IMG/VR virus record: IMGVR_UViG_3300021255_000054
Length of the DNA: 64,000 bases
Source: a virus
Taxonomy: Duplodnaviria > Caudoviricetes
Strand: one strand, 5' to 3'
A model generated the notes under the pieces. The model had not been told where the DNA came from and made no database searches. It saw only the letters and a program-made list of their open reading frames with translations. The translations under genes were made by a program, and so were the position numbers. Positions 595-42,587 of the stretch are shown in pieces (the first letter of the stretch is position 1; each line of letters opens with the position of its first letter).

Positions 595-1629
595 ATGATT
601 TATCTTATATTGATATGTTTAGTTATAATCGGATTTCTGGGATTTAAACTTTATTAGAAGAAGGTTGTTGATACTCAATTAATGAATGAGTATTAGGCAT
701 AGATACAAAAGGTTAAAGAACAATTAGATTCTGATCAAAAAGCTTTAAATTAGTATAACAGTCAGCTGGTAGATGTTCGTATCAAAGTTAATACTGAGTA
801 GCAAAAGCTAACTGATTTATATAATTAGTTAGATAGCGTTGAAACTAGCTTAAAAGATTCTCGTGATGAATATCATCATTTAATAAATAATAAGATGAAA
901 GAAATAGACGAAACAATTAAGCAATAGCGGTAGACACGTCAGCAAGAATTAGATGCTGAATTTGATACTCGTAGATATGATCTTGAATTACAATTATCTT
1001 AGGCTTTACGTGAATATGATGAACAAGCAGAAGATGCAAAGAGTGTAATGGCAGATATAATTAAGCAATGTCAAGATAAGTGTAATGAGTATTAGAATAA
1101 AGTTATTGATGCAGAACAACGATTCGAAAGTATTGAAAGAGCTTTAGCTTAGTATGAAAAAGATAAACAAGCTAAATTATTCTATACAATACAATTACCT
1201 GAAGAGTTCAGAGATGATATTGAGTTTTTATTAACTACTGTCGCCGCGAAAGTACAGCATCCAGATATTATTAGTAAGTTAGTTTGGGCTGAATATGTAA
1301 AGCCTAACTTAGATAATACATTTAAGAGAATTGAAATTAAGGCTGAACCAGGAATTTACAAATTGACTAATATAGATACTGGTAAGTGCTATATTGGAAA
1401 AAGTACTAATGTAAAAACTCGTATAGCCGATCATTTCAAATCTTCTATAGGAATTAAAAGTATTGCGGATCAAGCCGTACATCATGCAATATTAAAAGAA
1501 GGATTCTGGAACTGGTCAATTGAAGTAATCACATATTGTGATAAAGATAAATTATCTGAATTAGAAAAGTATTATATTGAATTCTTTAAATCATAGGAAT
1601 TTGGTTATAATAAAAATAGTGGAGGCTAA
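595..1629 (+). CDS. Membrane-anchored coiled-coil protein with C-terminal GIY-YIG nuclease domain (TAG=Gln)
   Basis: 344 codons read by eye, 12 in-frame TAG and no TAA/TGA until 1627; N-terminal MIYLILICLVIIGFLGF; GIYKLTN..CYIGKS..R..H..LEKYYI..GYN. Confidence 0.8.
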
Positions 1630-1630
1630 T

Positions 1631-2047
1631 ATGAGTGAATACCTTGAAGCACGTTCAAATCTAGATTTAAATATAGAGCCAGCAGAAAAATTATCTGTAG
1701 ATGAGCTAATCGAACGTTTTGCCTAGGTGCAAAAAGTTACTATAGAAGAAGCAAAAGAATTAGTTGGCGCAGATACTGAAGAAGAAGTAATGAAAAAAAT
1801 TACTGATTTTACAGTTAATAAAATTCATTCATAGCTGCCTTTAATGAATAGAGCACAGCGCCGTGCTTTGAAGAAGAAGGTTGGCGCGAAAAAGTATGCT
1901 GAAATGGTTGCCAATAGTGGCGATGAGATTAGCATGATAAATGAAACTGCGGAAAAATTAAATTACATAGATTTAATTCAAAAACTAAGAGCACTAAATG
2001 AGAAAAAGGAGAAAGAAAATGGCGAGACAACTACTGAAGACGACTGA
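1631..2047 (+). CDS. Hypothetical protein (TAG=Gln)
   Basis: GGAGG RBS at 1621, ATG 1631, two in-frame TAG, joins ORF 1844..2047. Confidence 0.7.
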
Positions 2048-2228
2048 CCTATGGCTAGTAGATACTGAAGAAGAAGCGATGGGAATGATTGAAGAAGCTA
2101 AAGATAAGCAGGCAGATAAGGGATATTCTCTTACAAAGTCTGGATATACGATGAAGACTAAGAAGTCTAAGGGAGAAATTGTAGAAGTAACTTATAGAGT
2201 TTCTCTTGAAAAAACTTTTGATCTATAA
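2019..2228 (+). CDS. Hypothetical protein
   Basis: AAGGAG RBS before ATG 2019; tightly packed in the operon. Confidence 0.65.
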   Translation: MARQLLKTTDLWLVDTEEEAMGMIEEAKDKQADKGYSLTKSGYTMKTKKSKGEIVEVTYRVSLEKTFDL

Positions 2229-2233
2229 GGAGA

Positions 2234-3016
2234 ATGAGTATGGATGAAAATATGGAATCCTTTGTTAATGCAATTCAGTCATTAACAGAGATAAAAGAAG
2301 AAAACTTGACTGATGAAGTTATGGTAACAGTCCAAGAAAATTTTAAACAGCAGTTATCACCCCAGATGGTAAAACAGGCTGTAAATGAAATGATTAAGAA
2401 TATGGAAGAACAAGGACTAACTAAAGAAGAAGCCGCTGATGCAGTTAAGGCAATTAAAGACTTAATGAATGAAATGGTATATGGCGAACAACAATATACT
2501 GGTAATAAGAAAAAGCTTATTGATGATATTATTCAATCTACTTATAGCATCTTTGATCAGGCAGTAGATCAGTATCATAGCTATAGTATCGTATTACCTA
2601 TGACGTTAGCTGAAGGAGCTGTTGAGCCAACTTATGCGCACGAAAGCGATGCCGCCGCTGATTTATATGCACTAGAAGATACAGACCTTAACGCTCATAC
2701 TTATGGCAATAAGATTCGTACAGGAGTTAATATTCAACTTCCTGAAGGTTGGTTAGCTATGATTCTTCCTCGTTCCAGCATTGGCGCAAAAACTCCATTC
2801 CGCCTAAGCAATAGTGTTGGACTAATTGATAGTGGTTATCGAGGCGAATTAGGTGTTCTATACGATAATACTTCTGATACTAACTCTTTTATTCATAAAG
2901 GCGATCGTATTGCTCAGCTATTAGTAATGCCATCATATCGTTTTAAAGCAGAGATAGTAGAATCATTGGAAGACTCTGATCGTGGTACCGGAGGATTCGG
3001 GAGCACTGGTGCTTAA
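2234..3016 (+). CDS. dut: Trimeric dUTPase with ~120-aa N-terminal extension
   Basis: dUTPase motifs AAADL, PRSSIG, GLIDSGYRGEL, GDRIAQL, RGTGGFGSTG. Confidence 0.92.
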   Translation: MSMDENMESFVNAIQSLTEIKEENLTDEVMVTVQENFKQQLSPQMVKQAVNEMIKNMEEQGLTKEEAADAVKAIKDLMNEMVYGEQQYTGNKKKLIDDIIQSTYSIFDQAVDQYHSYSIVLPMTLAEGAVEPTYAHESDAAADLYALEDTDLNAHTYGNKIRTGVNIQLPEGWLAMILPRSSIGAKTPFRLSNSVGLIDSGYRGELGVLYDNTSDTNSFIHKGDRIAQLLVMPSYRFKAEIVESLEDSDRGTGGFGSTGA

Positions 3017-3765
3017 TGAGTACCATTAATATATATACAGTATAGAACGCGCTCGAAACTGAAGGTTGGAAATTAGTAAGTGATACTTATAAAAATTTAA
3101 AAACGCCATTAGAAATGATTTGTCCTGAAGGCCATAAGTAGGAATAGACATTTGAACAATGGCGCAAACATAAAATATGTGATATATGTATGGCCGGTGA
3201 TCCTTATAAGGTCAAAAAAAATAAAGTGCCCAAAAAGGGCACTGACGTTTCGCGCATATTGGCGCTTGATGCGGCAACAGGAGTTACTGGTTATTCAATA
3301 TATGATGATAAGGTACTGGTTGGTTATGGTACTTTTAAAACAAGTGCCAACTTACATGCTACCGAAAGAATTAATTAGGTTAAAAATTGGCTTAAAGCCG
3401 CATTAAAGGAATGGGAACCTGATTTCGTAGGTGTAGAGAATATATAGCTACAAAGTTACGGTCCGAATGCGACACAAGTTCAAGTAAAAACATTCTAGAC
3501 TTTAGCTAACCTATAGGGTGTAATATTAGATACATTATTTGAAGCTTGTATTGATAGTGAGTTAGTATATTCAAGCGAATGGCGCTCATATTGCGGTGTT
3601 AATGATGGTGATTCGCATAGAGAGCCTAAAAAGAAATAGGCGCAAGCTAAAGTTAAAATTTGGTATGGTATAGATTGCTCAGAAGATGAATCCGATGCAA
3701 TTTGTATAGGAAAGTATTTTTGCGGCAAAATTAAAACGCAAGTAAAATGGGGAGAAGATATATGA
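3016..3765 (+). CDS. RuvC-like Holliday junction resolvase with N-terminal Zn-ribbon (TAG=Gln)
   Basis: 8 in-frame TAG; CPEGH..CDIC; ILALDAATGVTGY, VGVENIQ, SEWR, EDESDAICIG. Confidence 0.8.
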
Positions 3766-4145
3766 TTACTGTAAAGATTAGTGATTTACTAAATGCAACT
3801 GAAGTTCTATAGGAACTATCTAAGAAATAGTTAAAGGCGCGCTTAGCCTTTGATGTATCTCGTTTATTAAAGGCAGCAGATACTGAAGTTACTCAGTTCA
3901 ATGAAGCTCGTATGAAGGTTATTAATAAGTTCGGTGAGAAGGATGAGAATGGTGAACTAAGCACTGATGAAAATGGTAATTGCCGCATCGTTCCTGCTAA
4001 TATTCCTGATTTTAATAATGAACTAAATGAACTAATTAACGCAGAAGTTGAACTTAATGCTAACAAGATTAAGATAACTGCGCTAGAAGATCTAGACTTC
4101 ACACCATCTGATATGGTTGTATTAGAACCATTTATTGAAGTATAA
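3762..4145 (+). CDS. Hypothetical phage protein (TAG=Gln)
   Basis: ATGA overlap with the previous gene; two TAG; joins ORF 3912..4145. Confidence 0.7.
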
Positions 4146-4187
4146 AAAAGAGGCCCGTACTCAGAAATGAGTACGGGCCTATTTTTT
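4144..4187. terminator. Bidirectional intrinsic terminator
   Basis: AGGCCCGTACTC-6-GAGTACGGGCCT with A-run and T-run, between convergent genes. Confidence 0.85.
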
Positions 4188-7100
4188 ATTGTGGTTCTTC
4201 TCCTGCAGAAAAATAATATATATCGCATAAGGTTCCACCATGTACTTTTAAAGCCTTCTCTGAAATTTTAATTTCTTTAATAAAAGCATAAACAGAATCA
4301 TTACCAGATTTCTCCTGGGGTTTTATCCATACTTTCCTACTAGTTGTGGAAGCATTTGGGCGCATATTATATGCAGAAGCAATATTTTTATAATGAAAAG
4401 TATATTCAATTCGATTACTTTTATTTGCATAGCCCATTACTGATCGAGTTGCCTGATCTTTAACTACAATATATCCTGTATTATTTCCACTAGATCCTTC
4501 AATATACATTTTAAACCTTACAGCAGAAAAAGATTGCTAAGTAAGGTTACTACTAGCGACATTAAATTCTGCTTTAATAGTTATATCATAAATATAAGGA
4601 GCATCTTCACTTCCTGTTCCATCTGTGATATATAATGAAGTATCTCCATCATAATTTATTACGCACTAATGTGCTGCTGTAGAAGAATCAATGTCAGTAC
4701 CCTAATTTACGCTTACATACATTTCGCTGACATAAAAATCTGCACTTACATTCGGATTCGGCCGAATCCAAACCCAGTCTCTATCAGAAGGATAATTACT
4801 AGGTGTAGTAAGAGAATAAAAAATATCATCTCTTGCCCAGACTTCTTGATCGTTTATTTTAATACGGGAACCTTTAATATCAATTCCACTACTATCCATA
4901 TGAATATAATTAGTTGCACTATTATCAAGCTTAATATGGTCTTTAGTAATAGATAAATAAGAATCATCTAATGCACTATTAGCTCCTTTTAGTACATGTA
5001 ATCCATAATTAGCGCCTAATACTAAAGCAGTTGTTGAGGTTAATTCTACAGTATTTGTTGTATCTGAACCAGATGTAGTTATTTTACGTGTACCAGTACT
5101 TAAACCATCTATCGTAAAAGGTTCTGGACTATCACCGTCTTCTCCATCTTTTCCATCTTTACTAATATAACTTATATCATATACAGTTGAAGTAGCACTT
5201 CCTATAGTACTTGTTATCTTAGTATGTAAATATTTTCCTTGCTATCCAGATAAGTTCGGTGCTGTAGTAGACCAACTTAAATCTTTATCAGTAGAACTAG
5301 TATAAGCCGTTGAAGTAGTATTAATTAAATAATATTTAGTTACAGCATAATCATTTTGAGCCAACGTAAAACTAGTAGCCGTAATTTTTCCTGTAATTTC
5401 TAAGCCATTTTTTATAGTATACTTTAAATAAGGATTGGATGATGCTCCTAATCGTAAAATTGCATCAGTGGACTAAGCAGAAGTTTTAGTAGTGTCTAAA
5501 AGAAAATTAGTAGTATCTACTGTTAATTTTTTATTTGATGCAATCACAATTCCATCATTATTTAAAATTATAGCCTCTTGATATTGATTAGAATTATTCA
5601 TTGCTCCAATAGAAATTGATCCTCGTGCCTAAATAGAAATATTTGCTGTAGATTCAATTGTTAATTTATTATTTTCTATTGTAATACCAGTAGTCTTAAT
5701 TTTAGTAAAACTGGTCTCACCAGACATATATTTCCCTAATGAAGTATTTACTTCCGCAGCAGCACCATTAGCATCATATAATTCATTTGTAGTTTTACTG
5801 CCAATATATAAATTATTCCCAGATGTAATTTTAAGATTTCCAGCAGCACTGATTTCTCCACTAGAATTAATTGTTAGAATAGCGTTACCTGAATTGTTAT
5901 AAAAACCAAAATTACTCGCTTCAACTTTCATATACCCATTATTAGATTTAGCAATAAAACTACTTGCGTATATACTACCTGATACAAATAAATTATTATT
6001 AGTAAATACCAATCCAACCCAAGGTTTAGCACTACTTCCTAATACTGGATCACTATTAGCAATTAAACCTGTAACAGTTGAGTCTGCAGTAATATACTAT
6101 AAATTATGACCTACCGCGAATCTTGTACCTAATCCAGTATTTGTCTATAACTTAAAATTATTCATATTAACATATAAATTAGCTAAAGAACCTAATTCAA
6201 TTCCTTCGCCACTAATACGTGTATATGAACCTCTTGAAGCACGTAAGTTGTTATTATTATTGCTAGTAGTAGGCCAAGTAACATTTACTGAACCGCTGCC
6301 TATTGTTATTCCATTTTCATTCATTAGAATAGCATTAATATTATTTCCAGAACCAGTAGCAAATCCAATACTATCTTTAGTAAATTTTGCACCAATAAGG
6401 CCACCATTTACCCCTGTAACATTCTAATTACCAATTGCGGCAGAACCGGAAGCAATTACTACTTTATCTTTATCCAATTCAATAGCATTACCGGCATTAG
6501 TAGAAGTATTCATATATCCTAAAATTAAATGTTGATCATTTAACTCTACTGAAGCACCAGCAGCATTAGCTTTTGTTAATTCATTCGTATCCGCGTTATA
6601 AGAAAAGCCACCGCTAAATATTCTTACTCCCTTTCCGCTACCAATCCATACACCAGTATCTGGACTAATTTCAATTGCAGAAGTACTGTTACTATTTATA
6701 CGAGAAGTAACCATCTAAATCTTATTAGCTCCGCGCATTAATATATCAGCAGATCCCATCTCAATTTTTTTTGGATTAATTAATACTTTAGAAAAATTAG
6801 TATCTCCAGTAGAACTACCTACTGATGTATAAGTAGTAGCTATTAAATTAATACTACTAGGAGTTTCATTAGCAGCTGCCGCACCCAAATTTAAAGTAGG
6901 GCCGCCTATATTAACTGATTGTTCACCTGTAATATTGACGTCATGTCCCACTAACTTTAATAGACCATTGGAACGTAATAATAATTCCTTCTAAGCTTCA
7001 ATCGTAATATTACCATCTTCAGCATCTATATCTAAATGTGCGCCCTTTATCTATGCTAATGTTCCATCACTAGTCTAAACCCAGCCACCAAAACCACTAG

Positions 7101-10563: not shown

Positions 10564-10584
10564 GTGTCTACCTCCTTTTACTCA

Positions 10585-12300: not shown

Positions 12301-12306
12301 CTCCTT

Positions 12307-25878: not shown

Positions 25879-25903
25879 TATCCTTCATCTCCTTTCCCGC
25901 ATT

Positions 25904-25941
25904 AAAATAAAAAAAGAGCCACTTTCCGAAGAAAGTGGCTC
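25904..25941 (-). terminator. Intrinsic terminator upstream of TMP
   Basis: GAGCCACTTTC-TTCG-GAAAGTGGCTC followed by a T-run on the minus strand. Confidence 0.8.
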
Positions 25942-26812
25942 AAATATCACTATCTATATCATCCTATAGACGTATGATTTCCAATATCAAATTTTTCTTA
26001 TTCCCAACTGTTTCTGGCAAACCTACAATATTAAATGTAGAAACAGTAGGATCGGCCCTTTCTCCCAGTCGTAAGTTAATATTACTTACAACCCTAACTT
26101 TCGGCATAAATAATACATTCGTATAATTTAAACCTTCATTCTCATCTTTAGAATAAAATTTAGCTTCTAAAGTAAATAATCCATTAAACCGCTCTTTCTA
26201 TACTGAGTATATCAGAGCTTCCTATTCATATTTATAGTAGTAATCAATAACATATTTTCTACTATTATCTGCGGGGGTTTCTAAATTTTTATCATCAAAA
26301 ATTTGAACGTATGGAAGAAAATGACCAGGATCTAATGGATCCTCTTTATTTGTAATTAATTTTCCGTACTTTTTTTCTTGTACAGCTTCACGATCATAAT
26401 CAAAAATAAATGATTTTTTAATAGTATGATCAACAGGCCAATGCTTTAATATAACACCGCCATTAACATCTAATGAAAAAGGGCCTTCTTTCATTGGAAC
26501 ATATAATGGTTCATCTTTAGTCTAAGTAGTAACATTAGCACTTAATAGAATACTCATACCAACAGAAGACATAACGCCCTCAGTCATTTGAAATGTAGCT
26601 TCTGTGCGCTCATCCCATATAACACGTGGCATATTTGCCCAGCCGCCACGAGCAAACACAGGTCTATTCTATTCAGATAATAATGACATATTTACATTAT
26701 TAAAATATAATACTGGCTCTTCAGATTCAATTTTCCTACTGCCAAATTGCATAGGAGTTTTCGCGCGAAGAATGACTTCATACAACTCCTTATGCCCAAA
26801 ATATTCATCCAT
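25940..26812 (-). CDS. Major tail protein paralogue, 290 aa (TAG=Gln)
   Basis: Joins 26669 and 26222 fragments; FGHKELYEV..VLYF..ARGGWANMPRVIWD and KVRVVSNINLRLG..DPT align by eye with 26882..27829. Confidence 0.7.
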
Positions 26813-26828
26813 TATAGGCTCACCACCT

Positions 26829-26859
26829 AAAAAAAGAAAGGGGCTCTCATAAGAGAACC
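26829..26859 (-). terminator. Terminator after major tail gene
   Basis: GGGTTCTC-TTAT-GAGAGCCC plus TTTCTTTTTT. Confidence 0.7.
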
Positions 26860-26881
26860 CCATTATATTTATTTAATTAAA

Positions 26882-27829
26882 TTACTCTGCGATAGAACCG
26901 ATGTCATCTTCAGTCTGACCCGCAGTACCACTAGCAATATTGTAACGAACTAGCTTCATCATTTCGTTTTCACCAGCATCGTTAGTAGAACGTAATACGT
27001 TTAGAGTCATTTCAAATGTAGAAGGATCGCCTTCAGCCTGTAGAGTAATAGTAACATTGCTCTGTACCTTAGCCTTGTTAATAACGAACTGGAAGGGTTC
27101 ATCCTTACCAGTTTCCTGAGAACGCATAAAGGTATCACCAACAACTTTATAAGTTCCAGGGAAAGTATCAGGAGAAATTGTTACTTCAATAGCAGTTTCC
27201 TGGCCATCATTGCTTGTTAAGACTTCATCCCAGAAAATACGAATATGGTCGCCTTGTTTAGTAATCTGGTCAATAGGCTGATCAGAAGAATTCTTACCAA
27301 TCATTGCTGGATTTCTAAAATTAATAGCCTTCTGACCAGTAATGCTACCAGTTGTTAACTGTGTACGCCATCCTTGGCTTACATTAATTAAACGAATTGG
27401 ATGATCAGCACTAGCTGTGGGAGTTAATTCTACATCAGTTAAATGATCATGAGGCTTTGGCACTACACCATTAGCTAAACATACAACTTCTTCTGTATGA
27501 CGTACAATAACTGGTTTATTAGCTGCAGGCTTTTTAATAGCACCACCTAACATGAAACGTAAAGATTCTAGAGACATTAGAGCATCTTCTAGAGTAATAT
27601 TAATTTCCTTACCATAGTCCCACTGTACTAGACGAGGATTGCCCCAACCACCCTGGGCTGCGACATTCTCGGCAGTGGTCTCAATGGTGGAAACTTTTAA
27701 GGTATCAAGGTATAGCACAATGTCTCCTTTATAAACGCCAGCAGCAATATCATCTTCTAGCGCTTCAAACTGCACATTAGCTACCTCTTTAATGCCATAT
27801 CTATCAAAAATATTAACATTCTCAGCCAT
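26882..27829 (-). CDS. Major tail (tube) protein
   Basis: Intact 315 aa, no TAG, strong RBS, position between neck genes and TMP; GGWGNPRLVQWD and AEGDPSTF. Confidence 0.75.
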   Translation of the reverse strand: MAENVNIFDRYGIKEVANVQFEALEDDIAAGVYKGDIVLYLDTLKVSTIETTAENVAAQGGWGNPRLVQWDYGKEINITLEDALMSLESLRFMLGGAIKKPAANKPVIVRHTEEVVCLANGVVPKPHDHLTDVELTPTASADHPIRLINVSQGWRTQLTTGSITGQKAINFRNPAMIGKNSSDQPIDQITKQGDHIRIFWDEVLTSNDGQETAIEVTISPDTFPGTYKVVGDTFMRSQETGKDEPFQFVINKAKVQSNVTITLQAEGDPSTFEMTLNVLRSTNDAGENEMMKLVRYNIASGTAGQTEDDIGSIAE

Positions 27830-27850
27830 AAGAGTTTACCTCCTAAATAA

Positions 27851-28627
27851 TCATGATTTATCGGAGCTAGCAATTGAGCGCATCCAATGCTTAAGCTACG
27901 ACTTCTTCAATTTTGCTCCGGCGAGCGCCGCCGAATTATTTATATTAAACTAATCACGCCATCCCATCCGCTTTAGTTGGTCATGAAAAGCATAATAACT
28001 AATATCCCAAATATTGTGTATATTTAGGCCGCAATTATTTATTGTAATACTACCAATAAGATCAGATAATTTTAAGTCCGTGCCATCTTTGGCACTCTAT
28101 TTAGCTTTTGCTCTACGTACTTTTTCTCTATTTTCGCGCATTTTTTGTTTTAACCGTTTAGTAGGTAATGGATCATCTGGATAAATAATAATCTCATCGC
28201 CCTCAACTTCAATAAAATACATTCTGCGTAATAATCGCTGTAAATCATAGTATAACTCTTCAGTTATAATACGTTTATCAGTAAGCGGGCCGATAAATAT
28301 ATTCGGGGGATCTAGAGAAAAAGTAATTTCTTCATGAGTAAAGAACATAAAAGCTTCTTTCATATTTGTATTAATAGTTGGATCTAAACTTGCCATCAAT
28401 AGTATAAACTAATAGTCTGTTAAATCATCCATTAACTTCTACATTTCTTTATCTTTTTCTTTTCTAATAGGCTTAGTAGATGTAAGTACAGATAAATAGG
28501 TCTAAAACTTATCATATCCTAAATCAACAATCTATCCTAAAGTTGCAGGATAAACTGCACATACATCTTCTAATAACACTGGACTGCCTTTTAAAAACTT
28601 TAATACTTCGGTATCAGTTAAATTCAT
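27851..28627 (-). CDS. Hypothetical neck/tail-region protein (TAG=Gln)
   Basis: ATG 28627 to TGA 27851 in frame with fragment 28097..28399. Confidence 0.65.
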
Positions 28628-29120
28628 TAATCTAATACACCATCGAATAACCGCCTATCCAAGGGGTTAAAGTTAAGGCATCCGCGCGCACAAAAGATAA
28701 AGTACCAATTCCTGCCATCTGCGCCTAATTGAATGTATTATCAATTTCCTACATTAATAGGTAAGGGCGCAATGAATGTTCACTTAGCATCCATTCTTCA
28801 TATGGGCAAGCAATATCAAATCGTAATGTAGAAATTTTAAAATCTGGATTTAATGGATTTACAATAAAATTAGAGAACACAGCTACAATGTAGGACATTT
28901 TCTCTGTACTATCATCAAATACTTTTGGCACGATTAATATTTGTTTTCCTAATAAATCCAATCCATCAATATCAGGATACTTTTCTTTATCAAAAGGATC
29001 CCGCACCTAATATTTAAGTAATCTACAAATATTCTGATTCTTCATAATTTTATTGGCAATATTAAAAGCATTTGTACCCATTACGGCGAATCTTCTCTAA
29101 CTCGGTTGCTAAATAGCCAT
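28614..29120 (-). CDS. Putative tail completion/terminator protein (TAG=Gln)
   Basis: GAGGTG RBS, ATG 29120, includes fragment 28749..29006; function from gene order only. Confidence 0.55.
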
Positions 29121-29130
29121 ATTATTCACC

Positions 29131-30375
29131 TCACCATAATGGAACTATTTTTATTGTTTTTGAATATTCAATATTGTTGTAAGTGGCATGTAATATTACT
29201 GTTCCTAATCTATTATGATTATTAGCTTTAATTATGCAACTATTATTTAATTGCTAGCCACTATTATTACGATTAGGCTCGATAGTTACAATCTTTTTCT
29301 TCTTATCTTCTTCAGATAAAAATTCAATAGTAAAGATTCCTTTGTCTAATAAGGCATCTAAACCAATACCATTACCCTATTCATCACTTAAATGATATTC
29401 CTATTGTCGATCTAGTTTAATCGAATCTGGACCATCAATATAAGCAACAAATTCTTCATTAGGTTCATCAATTGTAATCTAAAATTCTTTAGTAACAGCT
29501 TTTCTATCTTTCAGCCGCATAATAACAGTAATTTCTCCTGCTGCTGCGGCATACCACATACCATCATCATTCTACTTTATTAATTCAGATCCATCTTTTG
29601 GCAATAGCTCGATTTCCCATTCATTAAAAGTATTTTCTCCAAAATCTGGAATTAAATAGTCCCCAACTGTATACAGCGGATTAAGAGTAGGAAATGCTAA
29701 TTTATCGGTATCAGCAACATCTACTTCTCTATCATCATACTAATAATTCACTTTACTTTCAGTCAAAGACATATATAAAATACCTTTAACACTAGTAAAA
29801 TCTTGTTCAACCATTTGCCAACCTTCATCTTCAATAATAAAGTTTGTACCACGATTAATTTCTCTTCGTGGCATAATAATTTCGGCATACTTATTTGGCT
29901 ATGGCGTAATTAAATTATGCCAAGTTCTAAAGTTGCCTTTAATTTTATCATCAGTAGAACTACATACATAAGACCAAGATTTTAATAATCTTCCTTTCTC
30001 ATTAATCCATTTAATCTCATAATTACATTTAATAATAGAGAAAGACTAATAAGTGGCATGTACTTTTTCTTCTTTAGATAATAATATCCATTTATTTAAA
30101 GTACCATCATCCTAATACCAATTTAAAATATCACCAACTACAATTGGAATATCATTGGCAACATGTAGTTCCATTAATTTCTTTTCATCTCTATCTTTAC
30201 TAGTTTCTATAATACCACTAAAATAGATTCCTCTTTCAACTGACAAGTTCCATACAGTACAAGGGGAAGATGCCATCCATTTTTCAAAAGCTAAGATGCC
30301 ACTATTTTTTACTCGATCCTACGGATTATCGCCGAAAAAATTTACTCTTGAAAAATAAACATCAAGATAATTCAT
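29131..30375 (-). CDS. Putative head-closure protein with C-terminal beta-rich extension (TAG=Gln)
   Basis: Absent from the track; ATG 30375 with GGAG RBS to TGA 29131; VGDILNW..IIKCNYEIKW..KIVPLW. Confidence 0.6.
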
Positions 30376-30697
30376 CTGGCTACTCCAAGCCGCCAACTAA
30401 ATTAATGCACTCAAAGATATTCTTTCTGAAATATTCATAAGAAAGATATCTAAGCGCACATAATTTACCCATTAGCGGCCACCAGTTAATTGAATTCGCG
30501 CCCAAACCTCTTATTTCTATAATGATAGAATCTAAAAACTTCTACCATTCTCCATCCTTTTCGCGCTCACATAATAAGCCATAAAGCCGCCCTTTTAGCT
30601 TATTCTTATAGCTATCAAAAGTAATATCAGAGATATTGCTTTTTCCCAGCTAATTTTCTAAATATTGTGGCGGGATTCTTTCCACGCGATCTATCAT
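30362..30697 (-). CDS. Hypothetical neck-region protein, start uncertain (TAG=Gln)
   Basis: YKNKLKGRLYGLLCERE..FRKNIFECINL; fills the gap between neighbours. Confidence 0.55.
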
Positions 30698-31121
30698 AGT
30701 CGTCGACACGATCTTGCGTCTCCAAACGTACTGCAGCTTCAAGCTTATTTAATTTATCTAAATGATTTGCGGCGGAAAAGTCTTTTGAGGTATAGAGCTG
30801 TCCAATTTGGTCCCAACTTGCTACACATCTTTTAATCCATTCATGTTTCATAAAAGTAGCAAGTACCTAAATTTCATCATTCGTAAGATCTTCTTTAAAC
30901 TAGTAAAGTTTTAATCCACCACATTCGCCATCCTCGCTATCATCAGCATCGACTTCTTCAAAGTCTAAGCTAATTCGTGGATACTTAAAACGACCTATAG
31001 CCATTTTGAGAAGTTCTTGCCAGTCTCTTTCGATTATAGCTAACTCTTCTTCTAGCATCCATTCATCAGCGGTTATTCGCGCGAGGAAGGCATCATATAC
31101 TTTTAAGAAGGGTGTTGCCAT
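30627..31121 (-). CDS. Putative head-tail adaptor (TAG=Gln)
   Basis: Joins 30900..31130 and 30627..30851 through TAG; TPFLKVYDAFLARIT..DLTNDEIQVLA..KDFSAANHL. Confidence 0.65.
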
Positions 31122-31126
31122 ATTTA

Positions 31127-31567
31127 TCACTTCTCTTCTGCGTCATGCTTTGCAGCAATTGCTTTAATTACATCAACATCGCAATATCTTTTAATTAGGG
31201 CCACAATACCCGCATTGGTGATCTTATGCTCTACAGCAAGAGTAACAGCACTTTCTTTTTCTGCTTCAGTAGCATTAGGAATAAATTTAGCAAAAGCAGT
31301 TACATCACCTTTAACTAACATTTTTTCAATTTCAGAAGCCTCTACTACATTTTCTACGACTTCTACTTGCTATTCTTCTTCAATACCAGTAATTTTTAAA
31401 TAATGTCCATTTACAAGAGACATAAAACCAGGGTCAAAAGTCAGTTCTTCATATTCTTCCTGTGATACAGGAATTTCACGTCCCGGCATTAATTCACGAT
31501 TAAAATGAATATTTGGAATATATAACGAAACTAAATTCGTACTAATATTTTTAATTTTAATAGACAT
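31127..31567 (-). CDS. Hypothetical protein downstream of capsid gene (one TAG)
   Basis: AAGGAGG RBS, ATG 31567; joins 31370 and 31127 fragments. Confidence 0.7.
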
Positions 31568-31635
31568 ATAATTTCCTCCTTTTATCTCCAAAAGAAATCT
31601 GGGAGGGAGAAAAAGCCTCCCTCCCATTATATTAC

Positions 31636-32727
31636 TTAGTTAGTAATTTCGTTTTGAGCTACTACAGCAGCATTTTCGGTTTCCCAACCACTACCCTGAG
31701 ATAAAGAAGCATTGTAATAAATACCCCAATAGTTAGGAGTAGTGAATAGACCTACACCAACCTTTACATAACCCTGTAAAGTGAAGCTATTATCACCTTC
31801 GTGATCATCCCACTCACGGAAGTAAGGAGAACCTTCGAAAGCCATCTTGATAATCTTTTCCTTACCAGCAGGTAATACATAAGCAAAGGCAGGATTGAAC
31901 TGTAGTTTAGTATTAGTTTCATCGGTCCAAGACTGTGGCATTACTACAACAGGAGTGCCATAGAACTTGCCGATGTAGCCGCGATCGCGAACTTCCTGCA
32001 TATCAACATCAGATAGTTTAATGTTGCTAGAATTATAAACTAGAGCATTAACCATTTCTGCCGCAAATTCAGGAGTGCAATAAATAATTGGGCTACCATA
32101 AGGAGCAACAGTGTTGCATAATTTCTTCATAGCAGTAGGATTGAACTGGTTGGTCGCAACCTTATTACGAGTTGGACGGCCAGCAGCATTCCAAGAATTT
32201 AGTAAGCAACCCTGTACCATTTCAAATAGACGATCAACAATACCATCCTGAATGACTTCATAAATATCAGTCATAGATTCTAGACCATCGAGATAACGTT
32301 CGAAATCTACATATCCAGCACCGCCAATAGCCTGAATATATAAATCAAAACGATCACGGTCTAGACGGAAAGTTTCATAGTTACCAGATTCGGTGGCGCG
32401 AGTAACAAACTGCTTACCACGAACCTTACCACGGACTACGCGGAACTCTGGGCGCTGACCCTGAGCATAATTCTTTACTTCAACGAACATATCAAGAGCA
32501 CTCTTGACGTTCTGTGGTAAAACTTCCTGTAGATTTTCTTCTAATAGTTCAAATACATCTTCCTTATTGCGATTGAAGACGTGACGATTGAAGTGTACAC
32601 CATCCTTTGTCATTAGCTTAGCTAATTCATCACGGAGAGCGGCTTCGTAATCATAATTTTCTACTGCAAATTCAGCAGGAACGGCACGACCAAATACGCC
32701 GTTCATTAATATATGTAGCTTATTCAT
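31636..32727 (-). CDS. Major capsid protein
   Basis: Intact, TAG-free, ~363 aa; GGAGG RBS before ATG 32727; follows scaffold and decoration genes; GYIGKFYGTPVVVMPQ segment. Confidence 0.8.
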   Translation of the reverse strand: MNKLHILMNGVFGRAVPAEFAVENYDYEAALRDELAKLMTKDGVHFNRHVFNRNKEDVFELLEENLQEVLPQNVKSALDMFVEVKNYAQGQRPEFRVVRGKVRGKQFVTRATESGNYETFRLDRDRFDLYIQAIGGAGYVDFERYLDGLESMTDIYEVIQDGIVDRLFEMVQGCLLNSWNAAGRPTRNKVATNQFNPTAMKKLCNTVAPYGSPIIYCTPEFAAEMVNALVYNSSNIKLSDVDMQEVRDRGYIGKFYGTPVVVMPQSWTDETNTKLQFNPAFAYVLPAGKEKIIKMAFEGSPYFREWDDHEGDNSFTLQGYVKVGVGLFTTPNYWGIYYNASLSQGSGWETENAAVVAQNEITN

Positions 32728-32741
32728 AAGTCGCACCTCCA

Positions 32742-33380
32742 TTATCCTAGACTTACGATCTGATACTTAACGCCTAAACCGCCGTTAGGTATAGTGTAGA
32801 ATTTAACAACTTTTGCATAAGTTCCAGCAGATGGCTTGGTAGCAGTAATCTGAGGAACAGCAGAACCAGCAACAGCCTTTACATATAAAGGAGTGGTACT
32901 GATAGCTTTTAGAGCATCAATTAATACTTCTTCAGCAGTCTTCTGATTATCACCAGAAGTAACAGCTGCAAATTCAGTATCATCATATTGTAAGCAGTTT
33001 GTAGTCACTGTATCACCTAAGCCGAAGATGCCAACACGAGGATAATCTCCCTTAATCTTGCGGCCAAAGCGTTGTAAACCGTAGTGCATAATATCATATT
33101 CTTTTTCAGTGGTATATACAATACCAATAGGAGAATCAGTTGCAGCAGCAGGGGGATTAATTGCGCCTGCGGCCTTATCAGCAACTACCCACATACCGTT
33201 TTCACAAGGGGTTGCCTTAGTGAAAGCGTCTCCTAGAGGGGTCTGAGAAACAACCATACCAGTCTTTGGGAAGGCTACTTGGTTTAGTTCGAGGCTGGCA
33301 TATAGCTTTTCATCAGGATCGCGATGCTGATCTACTAAGTCACCTACGACATTAGTGATCGGAAATCTCTTCATTCCCAT
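32742..33380 (-). CDS. Putative head decoration / minor capsid protein
   Basis: TAG-free 212 aa between scaffold and capsid genes. Confidence 0.55.
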   Translation of the reverse strand: MGMKRFPITNVVGDLVDQHRDPDEKLYASLELNQVAFPKTGMVVSQTPLGDAFTKATPCENGMWVVADKAAGAINPPAAATDSPIGIVYTTEKEYDIMHYGLQRFGRKIKGDYPRVGIFGLGDTVTTNCLQYDDTEFAAVTSGDNQKTAEEVLIDALKAISTTPLYVKAVAGSAVPQITATKPSAGTYAKVVKFYTIPNGGLGVKYQIVSLG

Positions 33381-33394
33381 AGTTTTTTTCCTCC

Positions 33395-34669
33395 TTAGTT
33401 CTTGCGATATTTTTCCATAAATAACGCGAATTGATCAACAGCGGGCTCTGATAGTGGTACTATTGGTTCTTCACTACCAGCCATTTGCTTATTAGCATAA
33501 CAAATTGCTAATTTACTTTCCAATTCATCATAGCTGAAGTTTGCAGCAGCTTCACGAATTGGATTAATATCTTCTTCTGTTAATAAAACTTCATAACGCT
33601 CTATTAAAGAATTTCTGCGCTCTTCTTCTGCATGAGCGCGTTCTGCCGCATAAGTCGCAATCTCATTACGTAAGCTCGTCTCTACTTCAGATGCGGATGT
33701 TATCTGAGCTTCGAGTTCAGCAATACGATTTTGAGCCTGCTCGTAGTTCGCGGTTAAGCTACGAATTTGTTCTTGAAGTTCATTAATCTGAGCTTCAAAA
33801 TCTACTGCGGGTTCAGCCGCAGGTTCAGGCTCCTCCCTAGAATCATCCTGAGGTTCAGCTGCAGGTTCCTGTGCGCTATCCTCTTCATTAGAGGCAGGTT
33901 CCGTGTTAGCTTCTTCTTCAGCATTGAATTCAGCAGGAGCAGCGGGCTCCTGAATTGCAGGTTCATTCTGCGCAGGAGTGGACTCATTTACTTCGGGATT
34001 CATTTCATTTTCCATTTGATGTTCCCCTCCTTCTGGTTGTCTTTCAGCCTCTTCTACTTGTGCTTTTAAATCAGCCAAAAGTGAAGAGAACTTATCATAT
34101 TGAGATTTATACTGTTCATCCTATTTTGCGAAGAAGGATGAAACAGAGAAACATGGCTCATGTGCTCCGATAATACACAGACCCATGATTTCAGCTTTAG
34201 TATAGACAAAATATTCTTGTCCATCTATATCGGCCCAATCACCTTCGATAGAATTAATATCTAATTCCATAGATTGATTTGAGCCTTTAATATAATTAGC
34301 TTCATCGAAATATTTATTAAATAGCACTACAGAGAATACCGCATAATCGCGAGTGACTCCATCCTTATCTGTAAAAGGTTGCCATCCTTTAAAACTTTCA
34401 ACGTAGCCATAGGCGCTAGCGAGCTTTGGTCCAGTGTGGCTTGCCCATCCTTGAGATTCTGGATCAAAGAATCCAACTACTGGAGTATCGCCCATACTTG
34501 CGCTAGTAATTAACATATCTGCAACATCATCTTTAATATAAGATCCATTGCGATTACCATATTTAGTAAAAACGCCAACATCTAATCTATTCATATTAGA
34601 TGAACCAATTCTCTCAGGAGAAGACATAATTACGGCGTTGTCAAAATAAATTGGTATGTCTCTTTTCAT
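33395..34669 (-). CDS. Prohead protease fused to acidic scaffold (single TAG at 34121; internal start at 34015)
   Basis: GNRNGSYI, NQSMEL, GLCIIG..EPCF protease-type motifs; in frame through TAG with the E/P/A-rich coiled coil; internal GGAGG-ATG. Confidence 0.75.
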
Positions 34670-34680
34670 AATTAGCCTCC

Positions 34681-36222
34681 TCATTGCATTGATTCAATAT
34701 TAGCTGTGGTTTTTTCCGAACGCTCTTCAACACTAAGCGCTGGTCTTCCACCCTTATTATTTATGTTTTTTACCTAAACCGAACCACTACTATTTTTTTC
34801 TCCAGAATTATTTTTTTTGCTAGAATTTTCGTCACCGGATTGAGTATAAGATGATAAAAGTGGTTTCATTTTTTCATCAAGATTTAGGAACTCATTTTCA
34901 AAGTCAATACTGCTAATAAGATTGCGCTGTTTGATACCTAAAGCAATACCAGCCTAGAATTTAGAATAACCATATTGAGCGCCAGATAACCATTGTTGTT
35001 GATATTCTTTTAAATTAAATACTGTTAATGGCAGAATCTCAAAGTCAAATCTTAATCCGGTGCGGCTAAAGCGCGAATTGATTAAATAGCGTACCCAAGT
35101 ATTATACTTCTCTAAATATGTATTCATTAAAGCTTCATTCTTTCTAATTACATATAATAAAGAAGAACTATTATTAGCATTAAATAATAATTGACTATTA
35201 CCTAAAGCCATCCAGGCATTATTATTATATTTCTCTAAGCGTTCTGCTGACTAAGTTGCGGCAGAATTCTCTTGTAAATTTTCTAATGTGGTATCACCAA
35301 ATGTAGTTAAAACATCTACTGTATCTACATCAGCTAACATCTATGCTACACCAGCGTGTATCTGTTCTACTTCATCTAACTCAAATACTAAATGCCCATC
35401 ATTATCAATAGGCATACGCTAAATTAATAATTTATACATTTCATTATCATCACGCTTTTCTTCTCTACCAACAGCATTCTTCTGTTTTAAAATTTCAGGA
35501 ATACTAGCTAATAATAATGGAGTCTAATCAGCAGTAATAGTAAAGGTAACGCCGCCAGAAGAAGAAGGAACCATTACCCACGGATCTTGTTTCTTATTGG
35601 CTTTCCAACGTTTCCACGCATTCTAAATTACTAGAGGGAAATGTTTAATTTCAGCATCGCGCATTTCATCAGTATCATACTTAGTTTCAAAATAACGTAA
35701 GTTAAATTCTAGCACATTTAAATTATTAAAATCTTTATAGCGCGTGCGGCAGAACTCTAAAGGTAAATCCTACATTACTACTTTGCCGTTCAATTCCTAT
35801 AAAATACCATAATATATGCCCGTCTTGAGCCATTCTCTTGTTATATCTCTAAAAGTATTACGTACATCTAATGCTTCAACAAAATTACAAGCATTATAAA
35901 ATGCTTTAATTATTTGTGCTTTTGAACCCTTGCCCTATTCAAATAATGGAGTAACCAATGTATAGTATAATGGTAAAGATGCGAAAAAATCTATATTATT
36001 ATGATATACACCATTAGTACGATAGTAGAAACGAGAAAGTTCTCTCATTGCCGCAAGGTCACCACTACGAATAATTGCGCGAACCTCTTCTTCGGTAAAA
36101 TCTTCATATCGTACAGCATTATTTGTATGGTACCCATATCTGGAGATGCGTTGCCGAGAATCAAGCGGAACATAGTTAATCTTAAACTATGGCGATTTAT
36201 ATAACTATGCAAAATTATCCAT
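34681..36222 (-). CDS. Portal protein, 513 aa (TAG=Gln)
   Basis: Between terminase and protease; AGGAGG RBS; LPLEFCRT, PLLSSYTQSG, GRPAL tail. Confidence 0.75.
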
Positions 36223-36227
36223 AAAAT

Positions 36228-38006
36228 TCACCTCCTATTTTTAGGAGTAAAGAAAGCGTACTAAACAATACTTTTTCTTTTTCTTTTGAAAATTTCTTTA
36301 TCTTCATAATATTTAACCCTATACAATCCATATTCAAGAGCAGAAAAACGGTCTTTTTCTATAGAACGAGAAATTCTTTCTACTTTATACTTATTTTCTA
36401 CCCCAGTAGGCTTAAGCCGCAAATTATTTAATTCATCCATTAAACGTGAAGTCATTTCATATGGTAATAAAAATACACGTCTATCATAAGGTGTCATTTT
36501 CTTACCCTTTTTAGTAGCCATTAATTTATCCTTTACAATACGTTCATGCGCCAAAAATGAAGTAGAACCATTATTGACCGCGCTAAGGAATGCCGCGTGT
36601 ATCTCATCTTCATTAGTCGCACCAGCTTTAATATCATAGATAATAGCATTATATTTAGCTATTGGGTCATCTGCAGGGTCATGCATTTCTGGTGGTAAAT
36701 GGTGATCATTATTAAAGGCAAAATATGCGGGAAAGGTTTCACCTGTTTTTTGATCAAAAGAAGGTAATGCCATTGCATCTAATAAGCCAATACCTGGTCC
36801 ATTACCGTCAATTACAATCTCTCTTGGCTAATATAACTAAATCAATTTTTTAAGACGAGGTGCCTATTCAGTTATATAGTTCGCGCCATTAATGACTTCA
36901 GTATATACGACTTTCTTAGAAAACCGCTATTCACCTGGTAGTACCTTAATAACCATAATAGCTGTATTAGCAGAATAACGAGCAACGTCGCAAGATATTA
37001 AGTACCAAGCATCTTTACAATTCTCATTAATAGTTGCTTGACGTTCACACTTTAATATAGAACGATGTTTATTTAAGCGGCGAGAATCCAGCCACGCATC
37101 TTTACTATTACCAGACCAGATTGATAATGATTCGCGCGCGAATGAATCTTCACTTACGGTATTAGAATAACGTTGATCCATTAAGGTAGCTTTATCCAAT
37201 AATCCATAATGTAAAGGTACCTCATAAGATAGCCCCCACGAGAAGTATTCTTTTGGGCGCAATACTGCATTTACAGTAATTTCAATTAATTTCTAGTACA
37301 TAAATACAGTACGTTCAGCCGCGGTTGTTATGAAAATTTGCGCGGCAGAAGGCTCATTTGGATTCAAGGTACCATCAACTTCGCGGCGAGCAATATTCAT
37401 TTGCGGCCATAAGACTTCGTTGAATGGTATTTCTTCAATTAAGGCAGCTTCTTCCAAAATTGCAGCGGTCGCGCGCAAACCTCTTGAAGTATCTTTAGAT
37501 ACTACAGAAATCATACTTCCATTTTTTAAGAAAATTTCATAATAGTTAGAACTGGATTTAACACCGGTTTTACCATCATCAACTCTCGTAGCTAATTCTT
37601 TACGCAAGAGAGGCCAATGGCGAAATATTTCTTCAAACTTAGCTTCTGCAATTTTAATAACCGTGCCTTTAGTATCAGAAGCAATCATAATAGTAGAACG
37701 TGGTAATAACATTGCGCGCATAAAAGCGCTAAGATACGCAGTAAAGGATTTAGAAGTAGCACGGGTAGCTGTCCAGAAATGATAACGATAGCGCATACTC
37801 GCGCGCAAACTAATTCTCTAAAATGGCATTAAATGAAAATTTTTTGCGTCTTCCTAATCCTAGATCATATCTAATAGAAGGTCAGGATAACGGATCCATA
37901 AATCTAAATATTTAGTAAATAATTCCTCGTTATTATCTAAATATTCGCGCGTTAATACTACACCCTTCTCTATAGGTATACCATCACGCATATACAAATC
38001 ATTCAT
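36228..38006 (-). CDS. terL: Terminase large subunit, 592 aa (TAG=Gln)
   Basis: ATRATSKSF Walker A-like, RGLRATAAILEEA Walker B, SCDVAR, IDGNGPGIG, KDRFSAL; three track fragments in frame. Confidence 0.88.
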
Positions 38007-38943
38007 CTATACCCCCTCCCATCAGTTCGGCGGCAAGATCATCATCACCTTCATATTCAATATCGGCGGTTTCATCAAATTCAACTTTTTCATTTTCAAT
38101 TTCTTCAAGCCGTTCTGTCATATTATAGCGAGCGCGCTTTTCTTCTACTTGTTCTGCAAAGTTGCCTTCATTCATTACAAGTCGTTTTAAGTAGTTCTAA
38201 ATATTTTCCATCATAAAGTCGATGGAGTCTTGTGGTTCTGTATGCCAATTGGGATGCCATCCTTTTTTGCCGTAGTAAACCATTAGTTCTCCAACAGATT
38301 CAAAGTCTGCCGCAGATTTGGCATTAGAAGCTTCAAAATGATAGGTCTTAACAATATCATCAGCTTGCTTCATCATTTTAGAAACATCAACACCCGCGCG
38401 TAAACCTTCTTTAATATGTAACTAAAGTTCACAGAAATCTCGCGCCTTTTCCTATAGAATGGGAGTGGAGACGTTCTAAGTAGCTACAATCTAATTATAG
38501 AAATTATCAAGCCATAATAACTACTCGGGCTTATATGCGGCGCTCCATACTTTCTTTAATTTTTTTAACTTACTCTCAGTTAAAGTTTCAATCTCTTCAT
38601 CAATTGTGCCTTCTTCGCGCGCAAGGCGCCATCTTTCATTTTCATCTTGCCACTATAGTGCGCTATAATGATCATCATATAATAAATTAAAGTAGGCAGA
38701 TAATGTACGCTCCTTATGTTGCGCATAAAGTTGCGTCCATTTATTAAGATCAAAGGGCAAATCTAGCCATCTCATTAACCTATCAACTTCACCTAAATTA
38801 TCCTACTTAACCATTATCTATAAACAATTAGTACAAAATAGTGACCTATGGCCGGGAAAGAAATTAGAAGGCGTATACTAAAATTTTTCTACTGGCAAAT
38901 CCTATCTACATTTAAGGCATTTGCGCAATTTTTTCTCTTCCAT
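37999..38943 (-). CDS. Zn-finger protein upstream of TerL, possible small terminase (TAG=Gln)
   Basis: KCLKC..FCTNC, WLDLPFD, LKKVWS; absent from the track; function from position. Confidence 0.55.
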
Positions 38944-40216
38944 CTATTAACTTCACCTTTCCTTTCTTGACTCTAATTGCGCGATCGCATTCTTTGCATA
39001 GGCGTGATAAGCCATTAGTACGGGCTTTATTTTGGCTAAAGAATAAGGTGCTTGGCGGCAAGAGACGCTAACAGTGTGGGCATAGTACCAATTTATTCTT
39101 GGGGGTATCTACAAAGGCGTTATTCTTCGCGGCCGCAAGCGCAATTTTGCGTGGAATCTCATCCATAAATACAGTTGAAATGTGGTTAAGGTGGAATGAA
39201 ATTCCAAATTCGCGCAATATTATGTCAATTATGTCTTCATATGGGTATTTTTGTAACTTCAAATCCAACATATAATTTTTTAGAGGAGATAAATTTGCGG
39301 CTTTGCGGTATCTATCAAAGTCCCAGAATAATGTTTTACTATAGGTATCTACTTTTTCGTGTACTTGTTGGTCAATCTCACTATAGAAGTTAATAAAAGC
39401 TTGGATATGTTTGGTATTAGTCCAATCAAAATTATGCCTATAGACAACCCACTTAACTTCGGTACCATTAGGAGTTTCGCGCGTTTCGTAATCTGATAGG
39501 TTGCGCGAGATGGTATGGGTGTAGGAGTGATCAACGCGGCGCTGCCACTCTTCAATTGGAATCCAATAGAAGGAGTCGCCGCATAGGTCATAGAATTGGG
39601 TTTTTGGATGGTCTAGGGATTGAAACTTTAGTACTGGTTTATATGAATCTAGAAGATCATACTGGTTGCGGCGAATTTCAACTAGTTGATGTTTTAGGCG
39701 ATACAGACGATAGCTGTCTTCAAAAAGTAGGGTGTTTTCGTCTGGCGGAATTTTTCCTTCTAGCTACATAATCCATTTGTCGAGGCGGTCAATGGTATCC
39801 CACACTTCGGTCATACCGGGTACATCGGAGTCGCCTGGGTCTATTAGTTCTCCAGTTTTCTTATCATAGCGGGGCCGGCGCACGGTGCGTACTGATTTGT
39901 TATAGGGACTGCGCTTGTGCGGCGACTTCAACTATTCGTGGTCGAAGAGGGGATTTTCCATAAGCTCGTCAAGAGATAGGACACGTTCGGATGCGCGCTA
40001 AAAAGTGTTGTAACGGCGCATACCATCATCTGTGGTTTCGCTCCTTTCAATAGAGTTTTTTCCATTCTCATCTTTACCATATAAGATATAAGATGCCATT
40101 TGTTCAAGGTCGGTTTGGTTAGGGTCGGTTTCTAATCCGTCTAATATTGATTCTACGGCATGAAGGCGATCAATGTCGCGTTCTATGCTATAATCTAGTG
40201 AATATGCTTTTTTCAC
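38912..40216 (-). CDS. Hypothetical protein with C-terminal Zn finger, first gene of the structural operon (TAG=Gln)
   Basis: GGAGGTG RBS, GTG start; joins 39998 and 39068 fragments; CPHC..CKEC. Confidence 0.65.
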
Positions 40217-42547: not shown

Positions 42548-42587
42548 CTCCTTATAAAGTTAGATGTTAAACATCTAAAATCATATC

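Follow-up and report, generated by a model that had tools for sequence, protein, structure and literature searches.

Reassignment of TAG from stop to glutamine (Gln) is an established feature of certain bacteriophages, where it goes together with a late-gene bias, suppressor tRNAs and very close relatives that keep the standard code (bioRxiv 10.1101/2021.08.26.457843). This recoding, known as genetic code 15, also occurs in Lak phages (PMC8346664), and peptide proof of Gln at TAG has been obtained for crAss-like phages only (PMC9523058). Here, a 64,000-nt stretch of the IMG/VR virus record IMGVR_UViG_3300021255_000054 was studied. This stretch, called the window below, comprises bases 49,718-113,717 of one 189,572-bp virus record (35.6% GC). 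The genome has direct terminal repeats by its IMG/VR class and is 100% complete according to CheckV. In this phage TAG is a sense codon. Taken as a whole, the data are best explained by TAG meaning Gln, by a phage tRNA with the anticodon CUA, tRNA(CUA), and by recoding that would act as a translational gate on late genes, and we regard this explanation as very probably correct.

The phage shares several properties with the described code-15 phages, namely the crAss-like phages, Lak and the Firmicutes-infecting clades of Borges et al. These are TAG in structural and late genes with early and replication genes in the standard code, a phage tRNA(CUA), very close standard-code relatives, low GC and the rarity of TAG as a stop. 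Unlike Lak and some Agate phages, which carry release factor 2 (RF2), the clade studied here is without an RF2 gene, and unlike Lak and some Agate and Jade phages the genome has no release-factor or aminoacyl-tRNA synthetase (aaRS) machinery of its own. In comparison to the clades of Borges et al., these are SPbeta-like siphoviruses of ~180-190 kb to which no GenBank phage is more than 36% identical in the large terminase (TerL). They have 127-167 TAGs in single open reading frames (ORFs), and their most abundant virion proteins are systematically free of TAG; the term capsid is absent from both 10.1101/2021.08.26.457843 and PMC9523058.

A described relative by TerL, at 32% identity, is phAss-1 (PMC10607447; NCBI 'Caudoviricetes code 15 clade'; proposed Phassvirus), which is itself related to large Bacillota siphoviruses. 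This phage also reads TAG as Gln in TerL, portal and tape measure protein (TMP), carries suppressor tRNA-CUA genes and has no dedicated aaRS (PMC10607447). It differs in having a genome of 136 kb, compared with 190 kb here, in its human gut origin and in its three CUA tRNAs. The low TerL identity and the difference in genome size place the present phage outside the Phassvirus genus. A second group of described relatives is formed by the SPbeta-like phages, that is, Bacillus phages Thrax3 and PBC2, Brevibacillus phage Sundance and Geobacillus virus E3. These share their late gene order with the present phage, comprising YonG-like, TerL (YonF-like), portal, protease, capsid, tail and giant TMP genes, with TerLs 30-36% identical; unlike the phage studied here, they use the standard code.

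The sense reading of TAG is evident from the open frames. Between positions 595 and 40216 of the window, 21 genes contain ~271 in-frame TAGs and zero other in-frame stops. Under code 11, no stop-to-stop frame in the window is longer than 376 aa. The maximum becomes 4525 aa when TAG is sense, compared with 376 aa when TGA is sense and 461 aa when TAA is sense; other frames over the TMP region do not exceed 133 aa. As the frames explode only with TAG as sense, chance is excluded. A greedy gene call across the whole genome gives a coding density of 0.678 under code 11. Allowing TAG as sense raises this to 0.917 and allowing TGA to 0.715 only, so that the move from code 11 to code 15 brings a TAG-specific gain of 24 points. 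In the late region density rises from 31-54% under code 11 to 98-100%, and positions 4186-40216 of the minus strand turn into one late operon without gaps, whose frames depart from the standard code at TAG only. The genome as a whole has 563 in-frame TAGs in 114 of its 241 genes. TAG thus makes up 26% of Gln-type codons, and with TAG as sense, gene ends are TAA (168) or TGA (73) and never TAG. The in-frame TAGs are scattered evenly along the ORFs with no pile-up at 3' ends, and a 5' bias is marginal only (p = 0.046). The base that follows TAG is distributed like that after CAA/CAG and unlike that after real stops. The same jump in density occurs in four complete relatives, whose TMPs of 5012-5369 aa contain 127-167 TAGs.

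Much of this had been proposed in a first-pass annotation of the window. Gene 595..1629, said there to hold 12 in-frame TAGs and no other stop, translates with exactly 12 TAGs and ends in TAA. Fragments of TerL, portal, Dit, TMP and tail tip, said to join through TAG only, do form single frames, with 9, 12, 12, 129 and 39 TAGs, respectively. Both cited motifs were located: the TMP has VFNHL-TAG-T at residues 3695-3701, and the RuvC-like gene has LANL-TAG-GV at residues 163-169. The annotation also had recoding extend across metabolic, packaging and tail genes. This holds for the TAGs in packaging and tail genes and fails as a uniform statement, since the dUTPase, major-tail-like, capsid and 32742-33380 genes are free of TAG; in addition, gene 595..1629 encodes a GIY-YIG nuclease-domain protein and not a metabolic enzyme.

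Some TAGs lie close to gene ends. In five genes the sole TAG lies in the final 15% of the ORF, where it may still serve as a stop. A single TAG a few codons before TAA/TGA is also present in otherwise TAG-free early genes (window 41595-41984, plus strand, and 52222-52830, minus strand; genome 49,041-49,541), and such near-terminal TAGs may act as stops early in infection.

The amino acid at TAG was assessed from alignments in which TAG had been masked as X, so that no alignment test is biased towards Q. A search of a large protein database with TerL yielded proteins of this clade only, in which TAG had already been rendered as Q. As these do not provide an independent test, the comparison drew instead on raw DNA from relatives and on cultured phages with the standard code. 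The first set consisted of 80 related IMG/VR loci around TerL, with TerL identities of 70-88% for nearly all and 53% for one. Opposite 68 TAG columns of the query, the codons most often found were CAA (23.4%), TAG (20.8%), CAG (7.4%) and GAA (6.9%), and Gln was present in 59 of the 68. Two mutations separate CAA from TAG, and yet CAA is three times commoner than CAG at these positions, which argues for equivalence at the level of the amino acid rather than mutational proximity. Column profiles were then scored against substitution profiles of all 20 residues, derived from the same alignments. In the 80-locus set the mean log-likelihood was best for Gln (-2.32), with Glu as runner-up (-3.46), and Gln was the best fit in 37 of 67 columns.

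Further support for Gln came from siblings that do not use TAG. Eight related loci have no in-frame TAG across 1,200-4,400 aligned codons, and opposite the query TAGs they place Gln in 132 of 298 cells (44.3%) against a Gln background of 2.8% (p ~1e-119). In the same eight pairs, true Gln codons are self-conserved at 42%. The remaining cells include Glu at 10.7%, Ser at 5.7%, Lys at 5.0%, Leu at 1.7% and Tyr at 1.3%. In six cultured, standard-code SPbeta-like phages (~30-36% identity), Gln is again the commonest residue opposite TAG, at 15.5% against a background of 3.9% (p = 9e-12). Here, the columns aligned to TAG at TerL residues 63 and 381 are Q in six of six phages and those at portal residues 154 and 271 are Q in four of five. 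Lastly, of the 563 TAG columns in the genome, 444 are represented in four complete relatives (179-188 kb), where Gln is once more the best fit; in these genomes both motif columns, in the TMP and in the RuvC-like gene, hold TAG or CAA only. Per cell, Gln leads in log-likelihood by ~0.9-1.2 nats in the locus sets and by ~0.6 nats in the four complete genomes. The comparisons thus support TAG meaning glutamine in this phage. The identity that the first-pass annotation had inferred agrees with all four alignment sets, and no other residue fits the columns.

In standard-code siblings, 4 of 52 genes end in a TAG that serves as a real stop, with a backup TAA/TGA 3-4 codons on. This tandem-stop-like arrangement, TAG followed by TAA/TGA, is seen in the standard-code siblings L037, L069, L070 and L080.

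The window itself contains no tRNA. The genome carries 25 tRNAs in one array, and the first of these has the anticodon CUA. It was found by ARAGORN at 165,546-165,630, 52 kb past the end of the window, and no other CUA stem-loop of the genome lies in a tRNA context; the tRNA-CUA that the first-pass annotation suggested looking for is therefore present outside the window. The tRNA is 85 nt long. Like Gln tRNAs it has U1-A72 and G73; its D arm is compact and its variable region measures 19 nt. When folded on its own by minimum free energy it does not give a cloverleaf T arm. Escherichia coli supE-type tRNA-Gln(CUA), which inserts Gln with partial efficiency, shares the CUA anticodon, G73 and the weak U1-A72 pair; U1-A72 is also a determinant for GatCAB. 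Relative to the supE type, the phage tRNA differs in its compact D arm, in the 19-nt extra region with a second loop resembling a Gln anticodon loop, and in the near-complete efficiency that it would need. In the complete relative G002, the suppressor and the phage's own tRNA-Gln(UUG) have a common 5' acceptor strand (AGCCCCU), G73 and CCA end. A promoter-like site, TTGACT-17-TATAAT, which is near-consensus for the sigma-70 type, lies ~460 nt upstream of tRNA(CUA) (L001:556-584).

In contrast to tRNA(CUA), the RF2 and GlnRS that were also to be looked for are missing. Searches for RF-1 and PCRF domains, tRNA-synt_1c (GlnRS/GluRS), GatB_N, Amidase (GatA) and PylS gave no match in the genome, and their positive controls, on control genomes, all worked. 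Because the phage has no release factor, synthetase or amidotransferase, charging of the tRNA and competition with host release factor 1 (RF1) would need host factors or unrecognised phage proteins.

The suppressor tRNA is flanked by matches to two Rfam families. Cow-rumen-4 (63.7 bits) lies on one side at L001:587-654, genome 165,086-165,153, and cow-rumen-3 (100.6 bits) on the other at L001:1136-1280, genome 165,635-165,779. Both are downstream of the sigma-70-type promoter and their position beside the code-switch tRNA may be meaningful. Two further tRNA-related elements are present in the genome. One, at L001:14517-14588 (genome 179,016-179,087), matches the Rfam tRNA family with 43 bits, was missed by ARAGORN and has a poor acceptor stem. 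Its anticodon loop reads UUA and would pair with TAA, the main stop here. TAA-type suppressor-like tRNAs are reported to be universal in Lak phages, which do not recode TAA (PMC8346664). The other is a phage tRNA-Gln(UUG) in which an ~85-nt insert splits the anticodon loop (genome 179,695-179,727 and 179,813-179,852), and both halves were matched by BLAST with intact tRNA-Gln genes of two relatives.

The anticodon arm of tRNA(CUA), ACGGU-CUCUAAA-ACCGU, is followed by a second small hairpin, whose 7-nt loop, CUCUGAA, is that of the anticodon arm of tRNA-Gln(CUG). The corresponding motif, YUCUGAR, is found in 14 of 14 distinct long (85-93 nt) CUA tRNAs of viral contigs, compared with none of 23 other long tRNAs, 175 short tRNAs or 8 short CUA tRNAs. 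Among the long CUA tRNAs the acceptor stems and discriminators vary and the extra-arm loop is constant. The stem of the extra hairpin covaries in other phages (UGGC/GCCG, UAGC/GCUG, UAUC/GAUG), and in the present phage it consists of two G-C pairs only, being marginal on its own. A full-text literature search aimed at this design returned no paper that, by title or abstract, describes a tRNA with an extra loop resembling a Gln anticodon. The hairpin may be an identity element for charging with Gln by the host. A fuller combined proposal is possible but rather doubtful: the spare Gln anticodon loop CUCUGAA would replace the variable arm so that host Gln enzymes charge the stop-reading tRNA, a separate phage factor would neutralise host RF1, as 129-167 TAGs in one essential ORF call for ~98-99% decoding of each, and the absence of TAG from capsid and tail tube would be the visible cost.

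The use of TAG is strongly uneven. There are 25 TAGs in the 35 kb of replication and early genes (genome 10-45 kb), compared with ~271 in the late block (window 1-40 kb) and 11 in the cassette block that follows (window 40-60 kb). The late genes also differ among themselves (chi-square 66.8, 16 df, p = 3.6e-8): the capsid, capsid-stabiliser-position and major-tail-like genes contain zero TAGs and the protease-position gene one, and in neighbouring low-copy genes TAG accounts for 46-70% of Gln codons. This pattern extends to relatives: TAG is missing from the capsid gene in 37 of 39, from the 32742-33380 gene in 47 of 47 and from the major tail gene in 24 of 26. On the simplest view, decoding TAG is costly and is selected against in the most heavily translated genes. 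Simple arithmetic gives the full-length yield over 129 TAGs as 0.13% at 95% decoding per codon, 7% at 98% and 27% at 99%. A single ORF with 129 TAGs thus requires decoding of at least ~98% per TAG for even 7% full-length product. From this we infer full reassignment of TAG late in infection, not leaky suppression.

These observations suggest the following course of infection. Early genes would be translated under the standard code of the host. The suppressor tRNA, placed behind its near-consensus sigma-70-type promoter, would accumulate and be charged with Gln by host enzymes, which the extra hairpin with its Gln-anticodon-like loop may lead to accept tRNA(CUA). The TAG-rich late genes, for packaging, portal, tail and the sigma-like factor, would be made only once the charged tRNA had accumulated, so that recoding would act as a translational gate on late functions. 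As the sigma-like gene itself holds TAGs, the tRNA would also stand above late transcription if that protein is a late sigma factor. Host RF1 would be outcompeted almost completely, as the decoding level needed for the 129-TAG ORF demands, by means that are not visible in the sequence.

Several points weigh against this explanation. In the four whole-genome comparisons, TAG columns are somewhat less conserved than ordinary Gln columns (27% versus 46% Q among sense cells). The tRNA(CUA) falls under the Rfam tRNA threshold, its best Rfam match being tRNA-Sec at 34 bits, and its 19-nt variable region is, on its face, a class-II trait (Ser/Leu/Tyr). Borges et al. remark that many suppressor tRNAs go undetected (bioRxiv 10.1101/2021.08.26.457843), with which a subthreshold score is consistent. 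In addition, a complete-rated relative, G003 (179,225 bp; loci L160-L168), is recoded, with 487 in-frame TAGs and a density that rises from 0.70 to 0.91, and has no tRNA(CUA) detectable by ARAGORN or by a stem-loop pattern scan, so that a phage tRNA may not be strictly required. Finally, the Gln reading is drawn from comparative sequence only, and the timing model is derived from gene content.

Some of these points lead to alternatives. One is that TAG is sense but specifies Ser, Leu, Tyr, pyrrolysine, Glu or Lys. The length of the tRNA, its variable region and G73 give it a superficial likeness to a Ser tRNA, to which the tRNA-Sec match may be added; ARAGORN labels it as pyrrolysine; and Glu and Lys are the next commonest residues opposite TAG. 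Yet in the TAG-free siblings Gln stands at 44%, compared with 10.7% for Glu and less for the others, and the log-likelihoods favour Gln in every set scored. A class-II amber suppressor for Ser, Leu or Tyr, a candidate prompted by tRNA length, was ruled out by the column data and by the loop motif, since the extra arm with its YUCUGAR loop is unlike that of Ser tRNAs. Pyrrolysine decoding was ruled out in turn, as the genome lacks PylS and Lys occupies only 5% of the cells opposite TAG. A residue other than Gln is accordingly very improbable.

A second alternative accepts Gln and holds that it is inserted mainly without the phage tRNA(CUA), either because the host reads TAG as sense or through the host's own tRNA-Gln, the phage tRNA having another role. 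Genome G003 speaks for this, as does the detection of a TAG suppressor in only 40% of TAG-recoded phages by Borges et al. (10.1101/2021.08.26.457843). Against it, this phage and three of the four complete relatives examined have a conserved CUA tRNA, and TAG is a true stop in sibling phages. The avoidance of TAG by early genes would also have no point if the host were already decoding it as sense. Moreover, near-cognate read-through would give no usable yield over 129 TAGs, and this alternative too has very little chance of being correct. The last, that TAG is still a stop and the fragments either belong to pseudogenes in a defective element or arose as artefacts of sequencing or assembly, draws on the look of broken genes that code 11 gives the late region (density 0.31-0.54) and is hardly credible, being refuted as far as sequence data allow by frames that are broken by TAG alone and never by TAA/TGA over 4523 codons, by a like pattern in four independently assembled complete genomes and dozens of contigs, by the alternation of TAG with CAA/CAG at homologous sites and by a complete genome with terminal repeats.

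The gene content, read with TAG as Gln, is listed in the table. By its gene order the phage is an SPbeta-like siphovirus with a Bacillota host. The late module was identified from PHROG, Pfam and NCBIfam matches together with the gene order of cultured relatives. It runs from a YonG-like gene in the small-terminase (TerS) position through TerL, portal, protease-position gene, capsid-stabiliser-position gene and capsid (PHROG 4088) to the head-tail joining genes, a major-tail-like protein, the giant TMP, a Dit-like protein and a tail-tip-position protein. Both the late-gene order and the TerL/portal homology expected of an SPbeta-like phage are present. The closest TerLs from GenBank phages are only 30-36% identical and belong to Geobacillus virus E3 and to Alicyclobacillus, Enterococcus, Brevibacillus and Bacillus phages, every host being a member of the Bacillota. 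The choline-binding repeats at the C-terminus of the TMP also indicate a Gram-positive host. A host search with one genome per species gave a sole match, a 2.7-kb contig binned into a Bacillota metagenome-assembled genome (MAG) from the rumen. This MAG contig and the cow-rumen RNA families suggest that the phage probably comes from the rumen.

Table. Genes and gene blocks of the window (window coordinates), with strand and TAG content.
Feature	Coordinates	Strand	TAG content	Remarks
344-aa protein	595..1629	+	12 (TAA stop)	N-terminal membrane/coiled-coil part, C-terminal GIY-YIG nuclease domain
dUTPase	2234..3016	+	none	14 CAA/CAG
RuvC-like resolvase	3016..3765	+	8	TAG at residue 167 in LANL-TAG-GV
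Protein of unknown function	3747..4145	+	2	PHROG 1401
Tail-tip/fibre-position protein, 2125 aa	4186..10563	-	39	no family match; role from position only
Dit-like protein, 571 aa	10585..12300	-	12	weak Sipho_tail match, under Pfam cut-off
TMP, 4523 aa	12307..25878	-	129	PhageMin_Tail at residues 608-803; choline-binding repeats near 4270-4313
Virion structural protein	25940..26863	-	5	PHROG 2729
Major-tail-protein-like	26882..27829	-	none	PHROG 2729
Head/tail-joining gene	27851-28627	-	7	
Head/tail-joining gene	28614-29129	-	6	
Head/tail-joining gene	29131-30459	-	11	
Small virion-module gene	30627-31130	-	2	
Small virion-module gene	31127-31627	-	1	
Major capsid protein	31636..32742	-	none	PHROG 4088; capsid role by gene order versus Thrax3
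Capsid-stabilising/scaffold-position protein	32742..33380	-	none	
Prohead-protease-position protein	33395..34684	-	1	PHROG 3313; 21 CAA/CAG
Portal protein	34681..36231	-	12	
TerL	36228..38006	-	9	
TerS-position protein	37999..38943	-	11	PHROG 3314; YonG-like by position
Sigma-factor-like protein	38912..40216	-	4	annotation from PHROG 5767 only
Block of small genes	40424..60300		11 in 20 kb	nearly TAG-free; ~271 in preceding 40 kb

Several of the names in the table come from PHROGs or gene position, as is the case for the 2125-aa tail protein, the capsid, the TerS-position protein and the sigma-like protein, for all of which Pfam and NCBIfam returned nothing. PHROG 4088 is the family of the Enterococcus phage VRE9_4 gene in the position that matches 31636..32742. 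The sigma-like protein has no Pfam, NCBIfam or PDB support, and PDB sequence searches with it and with the RuvC-like protein gave chance matches only. In the protein encoded by 595-1629, the N-terminal part has weak matches to Rz/LysB-like spanins and the C-terminal part is a homing-endonuclease domain of the GIY-YIG type; this ORF is either an unusual fusion or two genes joined through TAG read-through. The TMP gene is among the longest tape measure genes, which points to a very long tail or to a multi-domain injection protein.

Recoding of TAG has been published and the clade's TerLs are already in a public protein collection as full-length proteins with Q at TAG, so the phenomenon is not new. 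What is added is a large mixed-code clade with extreme TAG loads per ORF, the clade-wide avoidance of TAG in abundant virion proteins and another instance of an unusual suppressor tRNA. Under standard-code annotation, a third of the genome resembles junk; decoding TAG as Gln reveals a complete and ordinary SPbeta-like phage. As standard-code annotation misreads such a genome, correct coding is a precondition for using rumen viromes of this kind. The clade also offers a natural experiment. Recoded and standard-code siblings exist at 70-78% TerL identity, TAG-free abundant virion genes adjoin genes in which up to 70% of Gln codons are TAG, and more than 100 TAGs occur in single ORFs of a phage that has neither a release factor nor a synthetase of its own. 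The question is thereby sharpened to how a cell with the standard code is brought by a phage to decode TAG almost completely, and one small RNA is the likely key.

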